This document shows, piece after piece, positions 894 through 34,282 of a stretch of 34,282 bases of DNA (positions are counted from its first letter, which is position 1; the number at the start of each line of letters is the position of its first letter). Origin of the DNA: a virus; the UHGV virus genome UHGV-0276200. One strand, 5' to 3'. Position numbers and translations under genes: made by a program. The notes below the pieces were generated by a model. It did no database searches and was not told the origin of the DNA. It saw only the letters and a list, made by a program, of their open reading frames with translations.

Positions 894-2099
894 TCATGGT
901 TTAATATGGGCATATACTTGAATTTCATCCATACAAGTTTCGAGTTTATAAAAGTCAGTTAAATTATAGATGTTCAAAATTTCATCATCTATGCTTCCTG
1001 TTAGCTCACGATTTTTTCTTCTTCGTAGCCTTCTGCTGAGATTCTCTCGATCGGATTGTGCAACTGATTCAGGCACGTACTCAACTGTTTTTAGGACCTG
1101 CCAAGATACAGGCAATGTGAATTTGAAAATTTTCGCTAGATTTGGACAAAATTCATTATTGGCCATCTCCTCGTAACGCACTTTTGGAGGAAGTACCACA
1201 TTTATTCCTCTGCTACCTAAGGCATTAGCAGGTAATTTTGTTGAGCGGTAGGCTATACCAACAACATTCTCATTGCTGTTCCGACTGATCCATTGCATCA
1301 AAAGATTGGGGATAATATATTCTTGTACAAAGGAAGCATTGTCATATTTTTTTAAATAATTGCATGCAATTATCAAAGGCCAAAGTGCTAAATATGAGAG
1401 TTTGGTATTGAAATCATATTTGTTCTTTCTTTTTGACTCTAATATAGATCTCTGTTTATATAAAAAATCAGGTCCTATATTTAGTACCTTTGAGTCATTA
1501 TTTTTATCGATCTTGTAGGCAGATATATATAGCTTATCAAAATCTGGCTTATCCATTTCTCTCCAGCATATATAAAGAGATGTTCCTAAATATAAACAGG
1601 GTAGACCAGCAACTGAAAATCTCTGTGCTCTAACAAAGTGACGCTGACTGAACGGAATATGAAACATATCTCTTCTTGATGTAAGTGGCGTATCAGATTT
1701 TCTAACGCGGAATAATGGTTTATCTTCATTACATAAGTCAGAAAGAGGTATGCATATATTTTCAATATGACGAGATATAGTTCGTGGCTCTAGCATACTT
1801 TCAAATGAGTCATATGCCGACTTAATATCCCCTGATAAAAAACACTCTAAACACGAGACGATTTCTTTCTGCATGATATCTACAGCTCTAAGTCTATTGC
1901 GCAAGCGTAAACTTAACCTGTTATCATTTTCCTGGATGTAATCTACTAAACAACCCCGGAATTTACTGCATTTTAGAGCGAAGTCATCTATCAAAGTAAG
2001 GTTTTTTTCAATCTCAATTGGTGGTCGAATACTTGATTTTTTTCTAATAGTGTCAAAAAGATTATTAAGTTCTTCATCGAGTTCTTGTTGAATATGCAT
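894..2099 (-). CDS. Hypothetical AT-rich cargo protein (401 aa) downstream of int; central segment resembles a RES-domain signature (tentative)
   Basis: Uninterrupted 401-codon ORF starting 9 nt after the int stop, with no obvious SD. Much lower GC than backbone. Segment FRVRKSD...QRFSVAGLPCLYLGTSLYICWRE matches the R-F-x...P-x-LYL-x-x-S...C-x-x-E pattern recalled for RES toxins such as MbcT. Confidence 0.6.
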   Translation of the reverse strand: MHIQQELDEELNNLFDTIRKKSSIRPPIEIEKNLTLIDDFALKCSKFRGCLVDYIQENDNRLSLRLRNRLRAVDIMQKEIVSCLECFLSGDIKSAYDSFESMLEPRTISRHIENICIPLSDLCNEDKPLFRVRKSDTPLTSRRDMFHIPFSQRHFVRAQRFSVAGLPCLYLGTSLYICWREMDKPDFDKLYISAYKIDKNNDSKVLNIGPDFLYKQRSILESKRKNKYDFNTKLSYLALWPLIIACNYLKKYDNASFVQEYIIPNLLMQWISRNSNENVVGIAYRSTKLPANALGSRGINVVLPPKVRYEEMANNEFCPNLAKIFKFTLPVSWQVLKTVEYVPESVAQSDRENLSRRLRRRKNRELTGSIDDEILNIYNLTDFYKLETCMDEIQVYAHIKP

Positions 2100-5707: not shown

Positions 5708-6561
5708 GCACCATCCTGAAATGGGCGGGAAATAAAACCGCCAATATGTCCGAACTGAAAAAACACCTTCCTGCTGGCCCGCGACTGGTTGAACCTTTCG
5801 CGGGTTCCTGTGCTGTGATGATGGAGACGGATTACCCCAGCTATCTGGTTGCGGATATTAATCCTGATTTAATCAACCTCTATAAAAAGGTTGCCGCTGA
5901 TTGTGAATCGTTTATATCTCGCGCCAGAGTTTTATTTGAGATCGCAAACAGGGAGGTGGCTTATTACAACATAAGGCAGGAGTTTAATTACTCCACTGAA
6001 ATTACTGATTTCATGAAAGCGGTATATTTCCTGTATCTCAATCGTCACGGTTACCGTGGTTTATGTCGTTATAACAAGAGCGGGCATTTCAACATTCCCT
6101 ACGGTAATTATAAAAATCCGTATTTCCCTGAAAAAGAAATTCGTGCATTTGCAGAAAAAGCCCAGCGGGCAACATTTATCTGCGCCAGCTTCGATGAAAC
6201 GCTGGCAATGTTGCACGCGGGAGATGTGGTGTATTGCGATCCGCCGTATGACGGTACGTTTTCCGGCTATCACACTGATGGTTTCACTGAAGATGACCAG
6301 TATCACCTGGCATCCGTTCTTGAACATCGGTCATCAGAAGGACATCCAGTCATTGTTTCTAACAGTGACACATCCCTGATCCGTTCGCTGTATCGCAATT
6401 TTACTCACCACTATATCAAGGTAAAACGCAGCATCGGTGTGGCAGCTGGCGAGGGTAAATCAGCAACAGAAATCATTGCTGTTTCCGGGCCGTGCTGCTG
6501 GATGGGATTTGATTATTCGCGTGGCGTGGATAGTTCTGCCGTGTACGGAGTACGTGCATGA
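5704..6561 (+). CDS. dam: DNA adenine methyltransferase (Dam-like, N6-adenine)
   Basis: N-terminal LKWAGNK motif and catalytic DPPY motif ([12 protein letters not shown]). The track ORF 5644 is an upstream over-extension. Confidence 0.85.
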
Positions 6562-8972
6562 CTCATGCCGATATGAACAACTGCTGCGGCTTTAACGAGG
6601 CTGCCGCAGCATTCTCATGGAACAGCCCGAAAAAGGCCATTAACCCTTATCTGGACCCGGCGGAAGTTGCGCCGGTTTCTACGCTTTCAAACCTGATCAC
6701 TCTGTACGCTGCCGATAACGAGCAGGAACAGTTGCGCCGCGAGGCACTGAGTGATCAGGTCTGGGAGCGTTATTTCTTTAATGAATCACGTGATCCTGTC
6801 CAGCGCGAAATGGAGCAGGATAAGCTCATTAGCCGGGCAAAGCTGGCGCATGAGCAGCAGCGTTTTAATTCAGACATGGTCATTCTGGCGGACGTCAACG
6901 CCCAGCCTTCCCATATCAGCAAGCCGCTGATGCAACGTATTGAATACTTCAGCAGCCTGGGCAGGCCAAAGGCTTATTCCCGCTATTTACGTGAGACGAT
7001 TAAGCCATGTCTGGAACGACTGGAGCATGTACGCGACAGTCAGCTATCTGCATCTTTTCGCTTTATGGCAAGCCATGAAGGGCTGGACGGCCTGCTGATC
7101 CTGCCTGAAATGAGTCAGGATCAGGTGAAACGCCTGTCCACCCTGGTAGCTGCGCATATGAGTATGTGCCTTGATGCAGCTTGTGGTGATTTGTATGCCA
7201 CCGATGACGTTAAGCCAGAAGAAATCCGCAAGACATGGGAAAAGGTGGCAGCGGAAACCCTGCGTCTGGATGTCATCCCACCTGCGTTTGAGCAACTCCG
7301 TCGGAAAAGAAACCGCCGTAAACCCGTGCCCTATGAACTCATTCCGGGTTCGCTGGCGCGTATGTTGTGCGCCGACTGGTGGTATCGGAAATTATGGAAG
7401 ATGCGTTGCGAATGGCGGGAAGAGCAGTTGCGCGCTGTTTGCCTGGTCAGCAAAAAAGCATCTCCTTATGTCAGCTATGAAGCCGTGATGCATAAACGTG
7501 AGCAGCGCCGTAAGTCGCTGGAGTTTTTCCGTTCTCATGAACTGGTGAACGAAGACGGCGACACGCTGGACATGGAGGATGTGGTAAACGCCAGCAGCAG
7601 CAACCCTGCGCATCGCCGCAATGAGATGATGGCCTGTGTTAAAGGTCTGGAGCTTATCGCGGAAATGCGCGGTGACTGCGCCGTTTTCTACACTATCACC
7701 TGTCCGTCGCGTTTCCATTCCACGCTAAATAACGGCAGACCAAACCCGACCTGGACAAACGCGACGGTAAGACAAAGCAGCGATTATCTGGTCGGCATGT
7801 TTGCTGCATTTCGTAAGGCGATGCACAAAGCCGGGTTGCGCTGGTATGGCGTGCGGGTGGCTGAGCCGCATCATGATGGCACAGTTCACTGGCACCTGTT
7901 GTGTTTCATGCGCAAAAAAGACCGCCGTGCCATCACTGCATTACTGCGTAAGTTTGCCATCCGTGAAGACCGCGAGGAGCTGGGCAATAACACTGGGCCG
8001 CGCTTTAAGTCTGAGTTGATTAACCCGCGCAAAGGAACGCCGACAAGCTACATCGCGAAATATATCAGTAAGAACATTGACGGTCGTGGTCTGGCTGGCG
8101 AGATCAGCAAGGAAACGGGTAAATCTCTGCGTGATAACGCTGAATACGTGAATGCCTGGGCGTCTTTGCATCGTGTTCAGCAATTCCGCTTCTTTGGCAT
8201 TCCGGGGCGTCAGGCTTACCGTGAACTGCGATTGTTGGCTGGTCAGGCGGCAAGGCAACAGGGGGACAAAAATGCAGGTGCGCCGGTACTGGATAACCCG
8301 CGTCTTGATGCCATTCTGGCTGCTGCTGATGCTGGTTGTTTTGCCACCTACATCATGAAGCAGGGCGGCGTACTGGTTCCCCGTAAATATCACCTCATCA
8401 GAACCGCTTATGAAATCAACGAAGAGCCGACCGCCTATGGCGATCACGGCATTCGTATTTATGGCATCTGGTCACCCATTGCAGAGGGCAAGATCTGCAC
8501 TCATGCAGTGAAGTGGAAAATGGTTCGTAAAGCCGTTGACGTTCAGGAGGCGGCAGCCGACCAGGGCGCTTGCGCCCCTTGGACTCGTGGCAATAACTGT
8601 CCCCTTGCTGAAAATTTGAACCAACAAGGGAAAGACAAATCAGCTGATGGGGATACCAGAACGGAAATCACCCGCATGGATGACAAGGAATTGCACGATT
8701 ACCTGCACAGTATGAGCAAAAAAGAGCGCCGGGAACTGGCAGCAAGGTTACGCCTGGTTAAACCGAAACGGCGTAAAGACTACAAACAGCGAATTACAGA
8801 TCATCAGCGACAGCAGCTCGTCTATGAACTGAAGTCCAGAGGATTTGATGGCAGCGAGAAAGAGGTCGATTTACTCCTTCGCGGCGGCAGTATTCCGTCA
8901 GGAGCAGGCCTGCGTATCTTCTATCGGAACCAGCGTCTGCAGGAGGATGATAAATGGCGGAACCTGTATTAA
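6558..8972 (+). CDS. A: Replication initiation protein A (rolling-circle nickase, P2 gpA family)
   Basis: 804 aa. HUH-like motif ([10 protein letters not shown]) and tyrosine motif ([12 protein letters not shown]). Positioned after the early operon as in P2/186. Confidence 0.85.
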
Positions 8973-9630: not shown

Positions 9631-9891
9631 ATGGGTAAAAAAGACAGTAATCACCAGATTATTTATCGGGGCCAGGTGCTGGAACGGTTTACCCCTGGCG
9701 GCTGGGTCTTCTTTCAACGCCCAAAGGAGTGTGGCGGAGGTTTTTGGTTGGGCCGCACCTATGAAGACTGCTTCTGGCTTGAGCTGGAATTCCCCGTTTC
9801 GCTATATGACGGCCTGGAGTTTTTGATGGAAGTCACCAGGGTAGAGCAGAGAAGTGATGAGGTTGACGCGAATTATTCCCTGTTTGATTAA
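9631..9891 (+). CDS. Hypothetical protein
   Basis: ATG at 9631 (MGKKDSNHQ...); no domain recognised. Confidence 0.4.
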   Translation: MGKKDSNHQIIYRGQVLERFTPGGWVFFQRPKECGGGFWLGRTYEDCFWLELEFPVSLYDGLEFLMEVTRVEQRSDEVDANYSLFD

Positions 9892-9939
9892 AAATGTATT
9901 AGCTTATAATGGAATACTATTTTTGCAGGTGGGGGCGCA

Positions 9940-10551
9940 ATGGATTTAGTCTTTAAAATTCTGGCTTCGTTGGGTGGGGTGTCTTTTGTTGCATCTGGCA
10001 TATTTGTTTGGATCGGGAAAGTTTATTTAGAAAGATATAAGTCGCGGCTAAACAAAGATATTGCTGAATTTCAATCACAACTGAGTGCAACTAATGAAAG
10101 AATAAAGGCTAAGTTAGACAATTCTGTTTATGTAACGAAAGCGTATTTTGATAAGGAGTTATCAGCATATAGTCTCATTTGGAATTCGATGTTTGAAACC
10201 AGAGAAAGCGTGCTTAAGCTGAGGCCTGCGCTGGATCATTTTGACCCCAACGAACCATTTGAAGAGAGAAAATTTAGAAGGTTGAAAGTTTTTTTCGATG
10301 CATTTAATACTTTTGTTACAAGTGTTGAGTCTAACAAACCGTTCATCTCACCAGAGGTTTATATAATCTTGGACCGTTTCCGGAAGGAATGCCTTTCAGA
10401 GTCAATATCGTTTCAGCATGGCGATCCAGAATTTGACTGGCAAAATTATTGGAAAGAGGCAGAGTTGAACCGTACAACCATCACCAAGCTTTTTGATGAG
10501 ACGTGTGATGCAATTCGAGACAGGATGCACACATTAACTGTGGTTACGTAG
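9940..10551 (+). CDS. Hypothetical membrane-anchored cargo protein (N-terminal transmembrane helix)
   Basis: 203 aa; residues about 5-26 are hydrophobic (ILASLGGVSFVASGIFVWIG), followed by a charged, helix-rich soluble region. AT-rich. Confidence 0.55.
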   Translation: MDLVFKILASLGGVSFVASGIFVWIGKVYLERYKSRLNKDIAEFQSQLSATNERIKAKLDNSVYVTKAYFDKELSAYSLIWNSMFETRESVLKLRPALDHFDPNEPFEERKFRRLKVFFDAFNTFVTSVESNKPFISPEVYIILDRFRKECLSESISFQHGDPEFDWQNYWKEAELNRTTITKLFDETCDAIRDRMHTLTVVT

Positions 10552-10642
10552 TTTTCCAAAAAGTCTCGATGCCCGCTTTGGCGATTGTGCATGTCTATGC
10601 CGCATGAATCCGCATGATCGTTTGAGGATCGTTTTAGCTGAG

Positions 10643-10669
10643 GCCCGCTAGGAATGGCGGGCTTTTGCT
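10643..10669 (+). terminator. Rho-independent terminator
   Basis: GCCCGC (10643-48), 8-nt loop, GCGGGC (10657-62), then TTTTGCTT. Confidence 0.5.
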
Positions 10670-10711
10670 TATGTCATGCAGGCGCATGAAAACCACTACA
10701 TAAAGCGGGCA

Positions 10712-10730
10712 GGCGTGGCGGGGATACGAG
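10712..10730. other. Candidate cos site (cohesive-end sequence)
   Basis: ggcgtggcgggga (10712..10724) matches the first 13 nt of the 186/P2-type 19-nt cohesive end as recalled from memory (186 GGCGTGGCGGGGAAAGCAT). Confidence 0.5.
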
Positions 10731-10840
10731 CGCGCGCTCATGGTTGAATTAATGAAATTATGGTGTTAAATAGGCTAGCTTTTTAAGTCGTGAATATTCA
10801 ATTTTTCAACTCATTTTTTTCATAGGGAGGAGTAATTGAC

Positions 10841-11539
10841 ATGGTTATGTTAGTGGATGACTGTCCACGATGTGGATCACAAAAAATAGCGTTTGATGTT
10901 AATGGGCTGAATTGCACTAGGGTTTACAATGCATTGGGCGGGGGTAAAACATACGAGTACGAGGTCTATTGTGTTTGCCGAGAGTGTCATAAAACGACAA
11001 TGTTTCTTTGCAGACCTTTAACGAAAAATAAAACTTTAGATGGCTATAATTGGGAAAGTGGAATATTCGGCTTAAAGGAAGTTGCAGAGGTTGTTAGGCC
11101 TATATCACCGGCAGACTTAGCAGTAGAGGAGCCACCAGAGTTCTTACCTGAGCATATCAATAGTGCATATGAGGAAGGGGCGAAATGTTTGGCTATAGGT
11201 TGTTATAATGCAGCAGCAACCATGTTTAGGCTTTGCCTTGATTATGCCACAAAAGGACTTCTTCCTGATGGGGAGCAAGGGCCTGCGCAAAAAATAAGGA
11301 GAAGCCTAGGGTTAAGAATGGAGTGGTTATTTGATAATCATCTACTGCCTGAAGCTTTAAGGGAACTAGCTGAATGCGTTAAAGATGACGGAAATGATGG
11401 AGCGCATGAAGGTATTTTGGATAAAGCTGCTGCTGAGGATCTTGAAGATTTTACCTATCTTTTTTTAGAACGGCTTTACACTGAACCTCAACGCCTTATC
11501 GAAGCCAAGACAAGGCGTGAACAAAGAAGAAACAAATAA
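10841..11539 (+). CDS. Hypothetical cargo protein: N-terminal zinc ribbon plus C-terminal DUF4145-like domain
   Basis: 232 aa; CPRCGS...CVCRECHK gives four Cys. C-terminal helical region with GNDGAHEG and the following acidic helix resembles the DUF4145 signature as recalled. Strong RBS GGGAGGAG. About 42% GC. Lies between cos and the Q stop. Confidence 0.6.
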   Translation: MVMLVDDCPRCGSQKIAFDVNGLNCTRVYNALGGGKTYEYEVYCVCRECHKTTMFLCRPLTKNKTLDGYNWESGIFGLKEVAEVVRPISPADLAVEEPPEFLPEHINSAYEEGAKCLAIGCYNAAATMFRLCLDYATKGLLPDGEQGPAQKIRRSLGLRMEWLFDNHLLPEALRELAECVKDDGNDGAHEGILDKAAAEDLEDFTYLFLERLYTEPQRLIEAKTRREQRRNK

Positions 11540-11547
11540 GTTCGGAA

Positions 11548-12585
11548 TTATTCTTCTGAAAGAATATAGGGCGTAAATTTAATCACTTCTTCGCCCAGCC
11601 AGTCGTTCAGCTCTTGTAGCCTTTTTTGCAAGGGCGTTAATTCATTACGTACAAATACGCGACTAGCCTTCTCCACATCCCCAAACCCTCCAACATTATT
11701 AGGCATAATCCCCATCATTTGCGGCGGCACGCGGTGCGCAGCCATCATGTCGTCGCGGCTGACATTTTTGATATTCAAAAACTCATCCTTCGCCGCGACT
11801 TCTGACAATGGGATGATCTGAAGCCCGTCTTTTTTGCCGTTAGGCGAGTACATAAACAGGTTGCGGAAGTTGCCTGGACCTTTGGCGCTTTTCATCGCAT
11901 TGCGGAGGTTGTTCACATCCTCCTGGTTTTGCGCGGCATCGGTCATGTACATGATAAAGCCCGCATGACTGCCGTTAATGTAATACTTGCGACGGAACAG
12001 CGTGGCGGACTCGTTGAGCAGGGCTGACGGAATGGCAGAAAGATAACCGGGCAGGCCGTAGATCTCCTGATTAATATCCGGTTCCATCAGATGAAAAATG
12101 CTGCCTTTCGTGAACTGATACGGCTGGGTTGTCATACCGTATTGCACAAACCAGTAGGTATCCAGGTCTAACCCGCGTCGGGTGTATTTTGCCAGTGCAG
12201 GCTCAAGGGCGATAACTTCACCGAAGCGGTTCGTGCGTTTCTCCAGGTAGGCGTTACCAAAAACCAGATAGTCCTGCACAAAACGCGAAAAAGCCTGCTG
12301 GCTGAGCAGCGGGTGAGGGATGTAGGTGCTGGTCAGAATGTTGCACTTTACTGCAATCGGGGAACTATGATGCACGGCAGCGCGGAAGGTGCGCGCCAGT
12401 CCGTCAAAGCTGACGGGCGGCTCATACCAGCGGTCCATCTGTACGCATTCCACATAATCCAGCAGTTCTCGGCGGTCCAGAACAGGAACGGGATCGCCGA
12501 AGCTGAATGCTTCGGCTGTAGTTTGACTTTTAAGCTGGATCTGTTTCGTCGCCGCAGCGCGGTTCTTCTTACTCTTTCCCATCAA
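11548..12585 (-). CDS. Q: Portal protein (P2 gpQ family)
   Basis: 345 aa (P2 Q is about 344), directly downstream of and overlapping the terminase gene. Confidence 0.85.
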   Translation of the reverse strand: MMGKSKKNRAAATKQIQLKSQTTAEAFSFGDPVPVLDRRELLDYVECVQMDRWYEPPVSFDGLARTFRAAVHHSSPIAVKCNILTSTYIPHPLLSQQAFSRFVQDYLVFGNAYLEKRTNRFGEVIALEPALAKYTRRGLDLDTYWFVQYGMTTQPYQFTKGSIFHLMEPDINQEIYGLPGYLSAIPSALLNESATLFRRKYYINGSHAGFIMYMTDAAQNQEDVNNLRNAMKSAKGPGNFRNLFMYSPNGKKDGLQIIPLSEVAAKDEFLNIKNVSRDDMMAAHRVPPQMMGIMPNNVGGFGDVEKASRVFVRNELTPLQKRLQELNDWLGEEVIKFTPYILSEE

Positions 12586-14348
12586 AAAATCTCCACAATA
12601 TTGCTGGTATTGGCGGATTCGCCCTGCAGCGGTTCGTTAAACAGTGCGTGCATCGTTGCCCAGGCCAGATCGGCGTGGCTGGCTTCTTCGCTGCGGCTGG
12701 CTTCATAGGTCGGGCGGTTGCCACTGGCGGTGGTGGCGCGACGGATTGCCATAAAGGACTGCGCTATGTCGGTGTGTCCGGCGTCAAACTCCAGACGGCG
12801 GTGGCTGATAATGTCGTAGGCCTTGAGTACCAGGGCGTTTTTAACGTTGGGGTTGTAGACAAACTCCCGGACGGCAGGAAAAAACGCTTTCACGTTCTCG
12901 TAAACCCCGTGACCAACGCCGGTTGAGTCGATACCGATATAGGTCACGTTGTACTGTTCGGTCAGTTTTTTGATGGCGTCAGCCTGGGCGCGGAAGTCCA
13001 TTCCGCGCCACTGGTGACGCTCAAGAATGCGGAACTTACCGCCCGGCACGGCTGGCGGCGCCACCACCACGCATCCGGCGCTGTCGCCGTTCTGCGTACC
13101 TTTCGCCGGGTCATATCCGATCCACACTTCGCGCCAGCCAAACGGGCGCAGGGCCAGTGCATGAAAGTCGGTCCAGACTTCCCAACTGTCCACCATGCAC
13201 GCCTGCAGCTCGCTGAGCGGGAACACGGACGCGAGATCGTCCACGAACTCGCACATCAGCAGGTTCTGGTATTCGTCCGGGCTGTACTCCATGCGCAACT
13301 GGTCAAGGTCGAACAGGTTACAGCCGCCGCGCACCGCATCTTCCACGGTGACTATCTGGCGGTACTGCCCGTCTGCGCACAGCAGGCCGGGGGCCAGATT
13401 GCTGTGGGACAGGTCGATGTCCACCTTATCGGCTTTGTTGCGCCCTCGGTTGAACAGCGCACCGGACCAGAACGGATAAGCACTGTGTGTCAGGCTGGAT
13501 GGCGTGGAAAAATAGGTTTGTCGCCATTTTTTGTGAATAGCCATACCGGAAGCCACTTTGCGCAGCTCCTGGAATTTCGGTATCCAGAAATATTCATCCA
13601 GATACAGGTTGCCGTGGTAACTCTGGGCCGTGCGGGCATTGGTGCCGAGGAAGTAAAGCGTGGCCCCGTTAGGAAGCACCATCGGATCGCCTTTCAGTTC
13701 CACATCCACTTCTTTGGCGAAGTCGATGATGTACTGCTTAAAGACGTGGGCCTGTGCCTTACTGGCGGAAAGGAAAATCTGGTTACGTCCGGTCAGCAGG
13801 GCGTCAATCAGGGCTTCACGGGCAAAGTAAAAGGTCGCGCCGATCTGGCGAGACTTCAGCAGGTTGCGGATGCGATTGGTTTTTCCGGCTTCCCACCAGT
13901 GGCGCTGGTAGTTGAACATGGAGGAATGGAAGATTTCTTCCAGCTTCTCAATCTGTTCATCGGTGAAAACATTCTTTTCCGGCTGACGGCGCGGCCCTTT
14001 GTTGCGGTTGGCGACGTTAGGGTTTAAGTCGGCTTCGTTGCCGCCATTGTTAAACTTGCCGATCCGCGCGTGGCGCTCCGACTGGCGCGCCAGCAGGTCA
14101 ATTTCTTTGAAATCTTTCCCTTCTTTGTGCTCCTTCATAATGAGCTGGCAGTAGCGGGCGGCGGTGGTGAGCTGCATCTGATCCAGCGGCCCATAGTCAC
14201 CCCACTTGTCGCGTTTTTTCCAGCTGTGAACGGTTGCAACTTTCTCGCCCAGCATTTCAGCAATGCGGGCTACGCGGTATCCCTGAAAGTACAGCAGCAT
14301 GGCCTGCCGACGGGGATCGAGATCTGCGGGTGTCAGTGTGGTGTTCAT
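12582..14348 (-). CDS. P: Terminase large (ATPase) subunit (P2 gpP family)
   Basis: 588 aa; divergent from O across a late-promoter region, as in P2. Confidence 0.9.
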   Translation of the reverse strand: MNTTLTPADLDPRRQAMLLYFQGYRVARIAEMLGEKVATVHSWKKRDKWGDYGPLDQMQLTTAARYCQLIMKEHKEGKDFKEIDLLARQSERHARIGKFNNGGNEADLNPNVANRNKGPRRQPEKNVFTDEQIEKLEEIFHSSMFNYQRHWWEAGKTNRIRNLLKSRQIGATFYFAREALIDALLTGRNQIFLSASKAQAHVFKQYIIDFAKEVDVELKGDPMVLPNGATLYFLGTNARTAQSYHGNLYLDEYFWIPKFQELRKVASGMAIHKKWRQTYFSTPSSLTHSAYPFWSGALFNRGRNKADKVDIDLSHSNLAPGLLCADGQYRQIVTVEDAVRGGCNLFDLDQLRMEYSPDEYQNLLMCEFVDDLASVFPLSELQACMVDSWEVWTDFHALALRPFGWREVWIGYDPAKGTQNGDSAGCVVVAPPAVPGGKFRILERHQWRGMDFRAQADAIKKLTEQYNVTYIGIDSTGVGHGVYENVKAFFPAVREFVYNPNVKNALVLKAYDIISHRRLEFDAGHTDIAQSFMAIRRATTASGNRPTYEASRSEEASHADLAWATMHALFNEPLQGESANTSNIVEIF

Positions 14349-16402: not shown

Positions 16403-17053
16403 ATGAGCCTGAGTCCCGCACGGCAGCATCGCCTGCGCGTTCAGGCTGAACAGGCCGCCCGCGAGGGCGGCAGCGTTCGCCACGCGTCGGGCTATGACCT
16501 GATGCTGCTGCAACTGGCAGAAGACCGCCGCCGTCTCAAGGGCGTTCAGTCCACGGTCAAAAAAGCGGAAATCAAGGTGGAGCTGCTGCCGAAATACGCC
16601 GCCTGGGCGGAGGGTGTCCTGGCTGCCGGAGGCGCTCAACAGGATGACGTGCTGATGTACGTGATGCTGTGGCGCATTGATGCCGGAGATTATGTCGGAG
16701 CGCTGGAGATCGGGCGTCATGCCCTGCGTCATGGCTGGGTGATGCCGCTGGGTAACCGCAACGTGCAGACCGTGCTGGCAGAGGAAATGGCAGACGCAGC
16801 GCAGAGCGCAATGCTTGCCACTACCGGCTTTGATGTCGATCTGCTGCTGCAGACGCTGGAGCTGACAGACGGTCTGGATATGCCGGACCAGTCACGGGCG
16901 CGTCTGCATAAAGCGATTGGCGCTGTCCTGAGTGAAAGTAATCCGGCTTCCGCCCTTAATCATCTCAACCATGCGTTACAGCTCGATCCCCGCTGTGGCG
17001 TGAAAAAAGACAAACAGCAGCTGGAGCGCAGACTGCGCAATGACAGCCGCTGA
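16403..17053 (+). CDS. M: Terminase small (endonuclease) subunit (P2 gpM family)
   Basis: 216 aa in the M position after N. Confidence 0.8.
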   Translation: MSLSPARQHRLRVQAEQAAREGGSVRHASGYDLMLLQLAEDRRRLKGVQSTVKKAEIKVELLPKYAAWAEGVLAAGGAQQDDVLMYVMLWRIDAGDYVGALEIGRHALRHGWVMPLGNRNVQTVLAEEMADAAQSAMLATTGFDVDLLLQTLELTDGLDMPDQSRARLHKAIGAVLSESNPASALNHLNHALQLDPRCGVKKDKQQLERRLRNDSR

Positions 17054-19933: not shown

Positions 19934-20464
19934 TTACGCTCTTAATAAACTTAAATAACTTTTTATGCTTTGGCAAAAAGGGAAAAGGTCTATTTTAATT
20001 TTCCAGTTTTTTTTGTTTTGAACCCCAGAAGCAATAATAGAACCGTCCCAATATTTTATTCCATTTTTGCCGGTCTTTTTTGTTAACTCAAAACTTAATG
20101 CGTGAATAATTTTATTGCAGCATTCGCGTATAGAATCTTTAACATGACCATCTATAACAAAAAGTATATTTTCATGTTCTTCAAATGCTTCTTTCTCAGG
20201 TGAGTAATCTGGGTTCCACTCATGTTCACTAGTGTCTTGGAGAATTCGTAGTTTTGTACAAAGGCTAATAAGATTGTTGCTAATGGTATATTCCAACCAT
20301 CCGTTGTACGATAACTCCTCCATTTCAAATTCAGTTACTATAGAACCATCATATACTTTCTGTGTGGAATATATACGCTGTAAATAAAATTCAGATGAAC
20401 AGCATAATTGCTCAATTATTCTTGCGTGTTCTTCTATAGCGTAATAATCAATTGGATGGCTCAT
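19934..20464 (-). CDS. Hypothetical AT-rich moron protein between S and V
   Basis: Antisense to the late operon. ATG at 20464 (MSHPIDYY...) preceded by a GAAAGG RBS. Stop lies 5 bp from the S stop. No domain recognised. Confidence 0.5.
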   Translation of the reverse strand: MSHPIDYYAIEEHARIIEQLCCSSEFYLQRIYSTQKVYDGSIVTEFEMEELSYNGWLEYTISNNLISLCTKLRILQDTSEHEWNPDYSPEKEAFEEHENILFVIDGHVKDSIRECCNKIIHALSFELTKKTGKNGIKYWDGSIIASGVQNKKNWKIKIDLFPFCQSIKSYLSLLRA

Positions 20465-20495
20465 TCTTTTACCTTTCTTTGATTGGAATTGTATT

Positions 20496-20513
20496 TGTGT
20501 CATTTACCACACA
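20496..20513. promoter_or_regulatory. Ogr-type late promoter activator site (TGT-N12-ACA) upstream of V
   Basis: tgtgtcatttaccacaca, about 47 bp upstream of the V start. Confidence 0.45.
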
Positions 20514-33472: not shown

Positions 33473-33496
33473 AACCTGCTACGGCAGGTTTTTATT
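33473..33496. terminator. Bidirectional terminator hairpin between convergent ogr and the WYL-BRCT gene
   Basis: AACCTGC-TACG-GCAGGTT (7-bp stem) followed by TTTATT on the plus strand; placed just after both stop codons. Confidence 0.5.
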
Positions 33497-33974
33497 CATC
33501 TGGGATCTCACCCGTTTCAAGAAAATGTATAAAGCCAGGCTCATCTATGATGATAGTGCCTTTCATCCTGGCTGCCGATACTTTTGATGGGCCTGCATTG
33601 TAACCGCAACAGAGCATCTGAAGGTTTTGGGTTACAGATGTTCTTACCGTTAATCCTTGTTCATTCGCCTTATCAACCAACCTTTCTTTATCTGCTTTCT
33701 TAAATCCGGTGAAACACACATCGAATGTATTTTTTTTCGGACCTGACTGCTTAGTGAGATGTGAGTAGTTTTCGGGGAGGAATGACGCGCATTCCTGAAT
33801 GGCTTGTTCTTGTGAATCGTATTGTTTAAGAATGCGGTCTTTTCGGAAGGTTTTTATTCGATCGGTGTTCTTACAAATGCCCTGTATGTGATTTTCGCTA
33901 TAACTGATGCTCTGTATTGAGTGAACACCGATACGACCATTTGCATTGATGTAAACAAAGTGAAGTTCTTCCAT
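33492..33974 (-). CDS. Hypothetical cargo protein: N-terminal WYL-like domain fused to C-terminal BRCT domain
   Basis: 160 aa. N-terminus YINANGRIGVHSIQSISYSENHIQGICKNTDRIKTFRKDRI fits the WYL pattern (...R.FR.DRI). C-terminus VCFTGF...KERLVDKANEQGLTVRTSVTQNLQMLCCGYNAGPSKVSAARMKGTIIIDEPGF aligns with the BRCT domain of NAD-dependent ligase LigA. AGAGG RBS; about 42% GC. Confidence 0.6.
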   Translation of the reverse strand: MEELHFVYINANGRIGVHSIQSISYSENHIQGICKNTDRIKTFRKDRILKQYDSQEQAIQECASFLPENYSHLTKQSGPKKNTFDVCFTGFKKADKERLVDKANEQGLTVRTSVTQNLQMLCCGYNAGPSKVSAARMKGTIIIDEPGFIHFLETGEIPDE

Positions 33975-34089: not shown

Positions 34090-34097
34090 GATTTATT

Positions 34098-34142
34098 TGG
34101 TGGAGCTGGCGGGAGTTGAACCCGCGTCCGAAATTCCTACAT
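34098..34142. repeat. attR core: 45-bp direct repeat (3' end of intact ssrA)
   Basis: Identical to 730..774. Confidence 0.85.
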
Positions 34143-34282
34143 CCTCGGTACTACATGCTTAGTCAGTCTTTACATTCGCTTGCCAGCTGCGGACGGACAC
34201 GCCACTAACAAACTAGCCTGATTAAGTTTTAACGCTTCAACCCCAGGCAGGGCTTCCACGCGATCTCTTTTGGGTTTGACCT
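34098..34282 (-). ncRNA. ssrA: tmRNA (ssrA), 3' portion; the gene continues beyond the window end
   Basis: Reverse complement matches the enterobacterial ssrA sequence from ...AGGTCAAACCCAAAAGAGATCGCGTGGAAGCCCTGCCTGGGG... to the 3' ...GGGTTCAACTCCCGCCAGCTCCACCA. Confidence 0.9.

Follow-up and report, generated by a model that had tools for sequence, protein, structure and literature searches.

The 152 bp at 10587-10738 of the window, by which we mean the whole 34,282-nt stretch of DNA analysed here, are, we hold with high confidence, the cos site of the 186/Fels-2-like temperate myovirus Cartapus, with 19-nt ends and with accessory cargo split between its two sides. A sequence-only reading had flagged 10700-10735 as a candidate cos, and what it flagged is very probably the site at which the DNA of a P2/186-family prophage is cut for packaging, within a functional unit that exceeds those limits (core 10683-10737, lineage-conserved block approximately 10587-10738). 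We observed directly the sequence homology and position of the site, the pattern of its conservation, its cognate terminase genes and two cargo slots that vary independently, and each sequence-level feature that defines a P2/186-type cos is present, namely the 19-nt end, the core, the synteny and the cognate terminases. The parts of the site, in window coordinates, are as follows.

10712-10730, plus strand: predicted 19-nt 5' cohesive end (cosN equivalent), GGCGTGGCGGGGATACGAG, in register with the 19-nt cos of P2, 186 and PSP3.
10683-10737, plus strand: 55-bp cos core, with homology to the one that P2 and P4 have in common.
10587-10738, plus strand: full conserved cos block of the Fels-2/Cartapus lineage, 152 bp, from about -125 to +26, delimited by column conservation.

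The window contains Escherichia phage Cartapus (OV696611 / NC_070909), prophage 4 of E. coli LF82, in its integrated state, and it matches the phage with 0 mismatches over the 9,765 nt left of cos and, to the right, with none until the host junction at 34143. Perfect 46-nt direct repeats at 729-774 and 34097-34142, lying 33,368 nt apart, are the attL and attR cores, and since the repeated sequence is that of the ssrA 3' end (a 3' portion of tmRNA was called by Rfam on the minus strand at 34098-34282), the prophage sits in that gene. Fels-2 also sits in ssrA, and SopEPhi, going by the title of its paper, is reportedly integrated there too. ARAGORN called no tRNA or tmRNA in the window, having missed ssrA because the window end cuts the gene. 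The cos region here is the same DNA as that of the Cartapus record, where a misc_feature at 1-59, 'putative cos site, homologous to the cos of P2 phage', corresponds to window 10680-10738. The first base of the GenBank record falls at window 10680, which puts it 32 nt upstream of where the top-strand nick is predicted, and the record therefore does not open at the predicted physical end of the virion DNA.

Evaluating the cohesive end itself, we found the 13-mer GGCGTGGCGGGGA at 10712-10724 on the plus strand, its single exact occurrence in the whole window, and the motif GGCG[A/T]GGCGGGGA gave one exact match across both strands against a mean of 0.01 in 100 dinucleotide shuffles. We compared this sequence with the GenBank records of P2, 186 and PSP3, in which base 1 is the annotated left cohesive end (cosL) of a 19-nt cos, revealing the ends GGCGAGGCGGGGAAAGCAC for P2 and GGCGTGGCGGGGAAAGCAT for both 186 and PSP3. 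The 13-mer is identical to bases 1-13 of the 186 and PSP3 ends and matches P2 at 12 of 13, so that the sequence-only reading of it as a 186/P2 end was right for 186 (and also for PSP3) and one base off for P2. Extended to 10712-10730, the 19-mer shares 15/19 positions with 186 and PSP3 and 14/19 with P2 and P4, differing from 186 at positions 14, 16, 17 and 19; it is G+C-rich and homologous to GGCG(A/T)GGCGGGGAAAGCA(C/T), the end that marks a P2/186-type cos (Peduoviridae). From this homology we infer nicks at 10711/10712 on the top strand and 10730/10731 on the bottom strand, together with the length and polarity of the overhang. The bottom-strand nick, and with it the overhang length, is placed by alignment alone, since 4 of the last 6 overhang bases differ from 186. 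The same 19-mer as GGCGTGGCGGGGATACGAG has been given as the putative cos of the Fels-2-like Salmonella phage SEN8 (PMC5427200), whose record (KT630647) has it at position 1 under the label 'putative'; a search of literature and records for a mapped terminus of this exact 19-mer found only 'putative' annotations, those of Cartapus and SEN8.

Those four divergent positions are also what could be said for a cos site cut elsewhere than the 186/P2 model predicts, for example with an overhang shorter or longer than 19 nt, and phiCTX, which is P2-like, has a different overhang length. P2-like phages of Ralstonia have divergent ends (PMC5694545). Against such a difference, GCGCGC follows position 19 in exact register with P2, 186, PSP3 and P4, so the spacing across the cut region is preserved, and the 19-mer plus CGCGCGC is invariant in the lineage, which together lead us to regard a departure from the 19-nt model as improbable.

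The homology reaches well past the cohesive end. A 55-bp core common to P2 and the satellite P4, running from -29 to +26 of the top-strand nick, is attributed to Ziermann and Calendar 1990 in the accounts given by PMC3931495, PMC5694545 and PMC9594776. Comparing the window with the joined ends of P2, 186, PSP3 and P4, anchored at the top-strand nick, we found ungapped matches over 10683-10737 of 41/55 (P2), 43/55 (186), 44/55 (PSP3) and 42/55 (P4), whereas the next-best position on either strand of the window reached 28-30/55. Alignment to these experimentally defined cos sites beyond the 13-mer, on which the sequence-only reading had staked its proposal, was thus good, at 41-44 of 55 against a background maximum of 28-30. 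The elements in common are (T/C)GCAT(T/G)AAAACC followed by AAAG(C/T)GGGC(A/G) to the left of the 19-mer and (T/C)GCGCGC directly to its right.

To place the site among its relatives, we collected 80 IMG/VR loci (L014-L093) encoding portals at least 93% identical to that of the window. The 19-mer lies beyond the Q stop in all 75 loci with enough downstream sequence, identical in 72 and differing only at base 19 in the other 3, at a distance from the Q stop that ranges from 159 to 3,497 nt. Across 71 unique contexts, per-column conservation was 0.85-1.00 over approximately 10592-10731 and no better than random (0.35-0.46) left of about 10582 and right of about 10741, with the most conserved columns being the 19-mer and its immediate flanks rather than the hairpin described below. 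BLAST matches to Fels-2, SopEPhi, RE-2010 and Klebsiella and Yersinia phages all end at 10737-10743, so that column conservation and BLAST ends together delimit a sharply bounded 152-bp island between unrelated flanks. Its right edge (+26, after GCGCGC) is the exact end of the P2/P4 homology, and the block is strongly asymmetric, with the conserved sequence mostly on the side of the cut that would become the right end. Among 5426 complete E. coli genomes, 1271 (23%) carry it, and the best 10 of the 1271 matching RefSeq E. coli records have no feature annotated at it.

Left of the cut, the block holds two sets of repeats and a hairpin.

10589-10617, plus strand: three direct GCATG(A) repeats, at 10589, 10602 and 10612.
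10640-10668, plus strand: G+C-rich hairpin followed by UUUUGCUU, resembling an intrinsic terminator, from RNA folding.
10674-10689, plus strand: GCATGA pair, with inverted TCATGC at 10674-10679 and direct GCATGA at 10684-10689, followed by AAAACC.

Five GCATG(A) motifs, one of them inverted, therefore fall in 10589-10689, and exact GCATGA occurs four times within 88 nt against about 0.08 copies predicted from its window-wide density. In an alignment of six cos regions (the window, Fels-2, SopEPhi, RE-2010, 186 and P2), GCAT at 10602-10605, 10612-10615 and 10684-10687 is invariant, as are AAAACC at 10689-10694 and the AAG-GGGC and GCGCGC motifs. By analogy with lambda cosB, the GCATG(A) repeats are candidate recognition elements for the terminase small subunit. 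The hairpin folds at -24.2 kcal/mol (z = -3.4; 0 of 200 shuffles fold as well) and is kept in Fels-2, SopEPhi and RE-2010, where its loop and inner stem have changed; it is likely to stop transcription running rightward out of the right-end genes short of the cut. A consensus promoter and terminator scan of 9800-11700 did not call the hairpin, which it missed because only 4 consecutive T are present, and found no plus-strand promoter for the DUF4145 gene that lies to the right of cos. The terminator-like hairpin travels with cos irrespective of the upstream cargo, and in 186 another sequence able to form a hairpin, CGCCAGAGCTGGCG, stands about as far from the cut.

So strong a terminator-like structure inside the block, together with the lack of annotation in those ten best-matching E. 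coli records, could be taken to mean that the block is kept for something unrelated to packaging, for example as a terminator or regulatory RNA closing the early/SOS operon, with the 13-mer a non-functional relic. The block has no Rfam family, however, the best E-values (0.36 and 0.49) being far below gathering scores; the 19-mer and its flanks are more conserved than the hairpin; no other place in the window shows such homology to functionally defined cos cores; and the phage needs a cos, for which the window holds no other candidate site. Packaged Cartapus DNA has moreover been detected (PMC9928086), and we consider a purely non-packaging role very unlikely. An RNA gene at cos was considered separately with Rfam over the whole window and a permissive scan of 10400-10900, and the reading was dropped because at cos both returned only chance-level matches, at the E-values just given. 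As for a chance G+C-rich match of no significance, the loose motif is indeed not rare (allowing 2 mismatches, 3 found in the window against 0.9 expected, not significant, so that only the exact and extended matches carry weight), but with an exact-match expectation of 0.01, a core at 41-44/55 over a background of at most 30, and the block conserved at the syntenic position in 75/75 relatives, we regard this explanation as already refuted and give it practically no credence.

Reading the block as cos, we evaluated what lies to either side of it. The replication gene A (6558-8972), cos (10712) and Q (11548-12585, minus strand) keep the same order in 75 of 75 relatives, and in the window one cargo gene stands on each side of the cut.

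9940-10551, plus strand: last gene at the predicted right end (left slot), 203 aa, from the list of open reading frames.
10841-11539, plus strand: first gene at the predicted left end (right slot), 232-aa DUF4145 protein, by Pfam.

The cargo island is split by cos just as had been proposed, with the DUF4145 gene the first to the right of the cut and the 203-aa gene the last to the left. The proposal that a membrane-protein gene closes the right end also held up, the end being a predicted one, in that the 203-aa protein has one N-terminal hydrophobic helix, with ILASLGGVSFVASGIFVWIG in its translation. A cos adjoining the Q stop, the placement that had been named as speaking against the proposal, has no room there, since the DUF4145 and Q reading frames end at 11539 and 11548. 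The 203-aa protein matches PHROG 26391 (unknown function), with no Pfam family above cut-off and no PADLOC match. The DUF4145 protein was identified by Pfam (E = 4.5e-7; 30.3 bits against a cut-off of 23.1), matches PHROG 1305 'DNA binding protein' (E = 9.5e-53), matches PADLOC PD-T7-4 weakly (E = 1.2e-6, 26 bits), and carries a zinc-ribbon-like CxxC...CxCxxC arrangement at its N-terminus (CPRC...CVCREC). Because Pfam and PADLOC yielded just DUF4145 and the weak PD-T7-4 match, we give the two cargo proteins no function, leaving the DUF4145 gene a candidate defence gene of unassigned mechanism. In GC content the 203-aa gene stands at 35-39% and the two cargo genes together at 35-44%, against 51-57% for core genes, and the cos block forms a GC peak between two AT-rich cargo modules.

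Across the relatives, sequence clustering of the IMG/VR flanks revealed 20 types in the left slot (right end) and 46 in the right slot (left end), which assort independently: 58 combinations occur in 67 loci, and a single left type is found with as many as 15 right ones. No cargo occupies the left slot, from DinI to cos, in 17 of 68 loci, while the right slot, from cos to Q, is filled in 73 of 75 and empty in 2, with cargo of up to 3.5 kb. Around the same block, the genes on either side differ among Fels-2, SopEPhi, RE-2010 and SEN8, and two independently assorting slots are the norm for this lineage. Two marks of the known hotspot are present here, the gpA-gpQ position beside cos and a gene content that varies among close relatives. 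The A-to-Q region of P2-like phages has been described as an accessory and defence hotspot 'adjacent to the cos site' (Rousset et al. 2022, PMC9122126), the gpA-gpQ hotspot also appears in PMC13586616, and the interval from cosL to Q is credited as a hotspot for foreign genes to Dodd and Egan 1996 and Nakayama et al. 1999 in the account of PMC5694545.

Accessory genes also occupy other positions in this prophage. A 401-aa reading frame at 894-2099 (minus strand), between attL and the integrase gene, marks a further accessory position; it is annotated in the Cartapus record as 'putative RES protein, NAD+ binding domain' and had no Pfam match at E <= 0.001. Adjoining attR is a 160-aa reading frame at 33492-33974 (minus strand), annotated 'putative exonuclease' and with only a sub-threshold BRCT match, which has been reported to be a moron whose expression in LF82 lysogens is 15-fold over background (PMC9928086). 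A 189-aa reading frame at 19934-20503 (minus strand), 177 aa in the Cartapus record (CARTA_14), lies on the opposite strand with its function unassigned, inserted between the virion-morphogenesis gene and the baseplate gene V, a position that may be a further moron slot.

Packaging genes of the P2 type adjoin the site, as follows.

11548-12585, minus strand: portal gene, homologue of P2 Q (Pfam Phage_portal, E = 3.6e-18; Cartapus annotation).
12582-14348, minus strand: terminase large subunit of P2 gpP type (Pfam Terminase_6N, Terminase_6C and gpP-like Terminase_5).
16403-17053, plus strand: terminase small subunit of P2 gpM type (Pfam Phage_term_smal, E = 4.9e-40).

The Q stop lies 817 nt from the cohesive end, and a large terminase of gpP type is the enzyme that would be expected to cut cos. 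P2-type terminases take monomeric circles as substrate. We propose that, after excision from ssrA and replication, the gpP/gpM-type terminase would recognise the conserved block, that is the 55-bp core together with the upstream GCATG(A) repeats, and introduce staggered nicks at the top- and bottom-strand positions given above. The product would be a 33,368-bp linear virion molecule whose 19-nt 5' cohesive ends read GGCGTGGCGGGGATACGAG. The requirement in cis to the right of the top-strand nick would then be only about 26 bp, with about 125 bp conserved to its left, so that foreign genes could directly adjoin both sides; with cargo on both sides of cos, the A-to-Q accessory region would in turn be physically split into right-end and left-end slots. 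Misson et al. 2023 found Cartapus DNA in virion preparations above background (mean coverage 13.7; 3.3x10^5 genomes/mL by qPCR; PMC9928086), a recovery which argues that Cartapus packaging works; the same study saw no particles by electron microscopy and found no indicator host (PMC9928086).

Comparison with known systems places the window nearest to its own lineage. SEN8 (KT630647) has the identical 19-mer and also carries cargo genes between cos and Q, and Fels-2, SopEPhi and RE-2010 have the same block as the window, with the cargo on both sides differing among these phages, Cartapus and SEN8. The Eganviruses coliphage 186 and Salmonella phage PSP3 resemble the window in the position of cos relative to the Q/P (portal/terminase) operon and in the upstream GCAT and AAAACC, yet in them cos and the portal stop are separated by some 175 nt that hold no gene, whereas the window has 817 nt and the DUF4145 gene. 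P2 differs in that its overhang has A at position 5 and AAGCAC at 14-19, unlike the window, and there is no gene between its cos and Q, again unlike the window; its accessory genes old and tin lie directly on the right-end side of cos. The window shares with the A-Q hotspot a set of variable, AT-rich, non-structural genes between gpA and gpQ beside cos, and while the papers we found treat A-Q as one hotspot, cos in this lineage divides two independently varying slots. The lambda cos (cosQ-cosN-cosB) is comparable in the way it works, as a staggered nick site flanked asymmetrically by repeat-containing recognition sequence, and differs in having no sequence homology to the window and 12-nt ends against the predicted 19-nt ends.

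Because the Cartapus record annotates the site, the 19-mer has been published and cos-flanking cargo is a known property of P2-like phages, the cos described here was already known, and is real but ordinary. What is mildly new is quantitative only, namely that cos splits the hotspot into two slots that assort independently. It is a doubtful further step, which we would put forward only tentatively, that the 152-bp block also serves as a homology anchor for independent cassette exchange and that placing accessory or defence genes at the ends is itself selected; if so, one might speculate that selection acts because cohesive ends are recombinogenic, for instance, or because genes near an end are the first into or out of the capsid. 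Beyond correct annotation the importance of the finding is small: the position of cos fixes the true ends and the gene order of the packaged Cartapus genome, and the two-slot split is useful for mining P2-like prophages for defence genes and for designing cos-based transducing plasmids.
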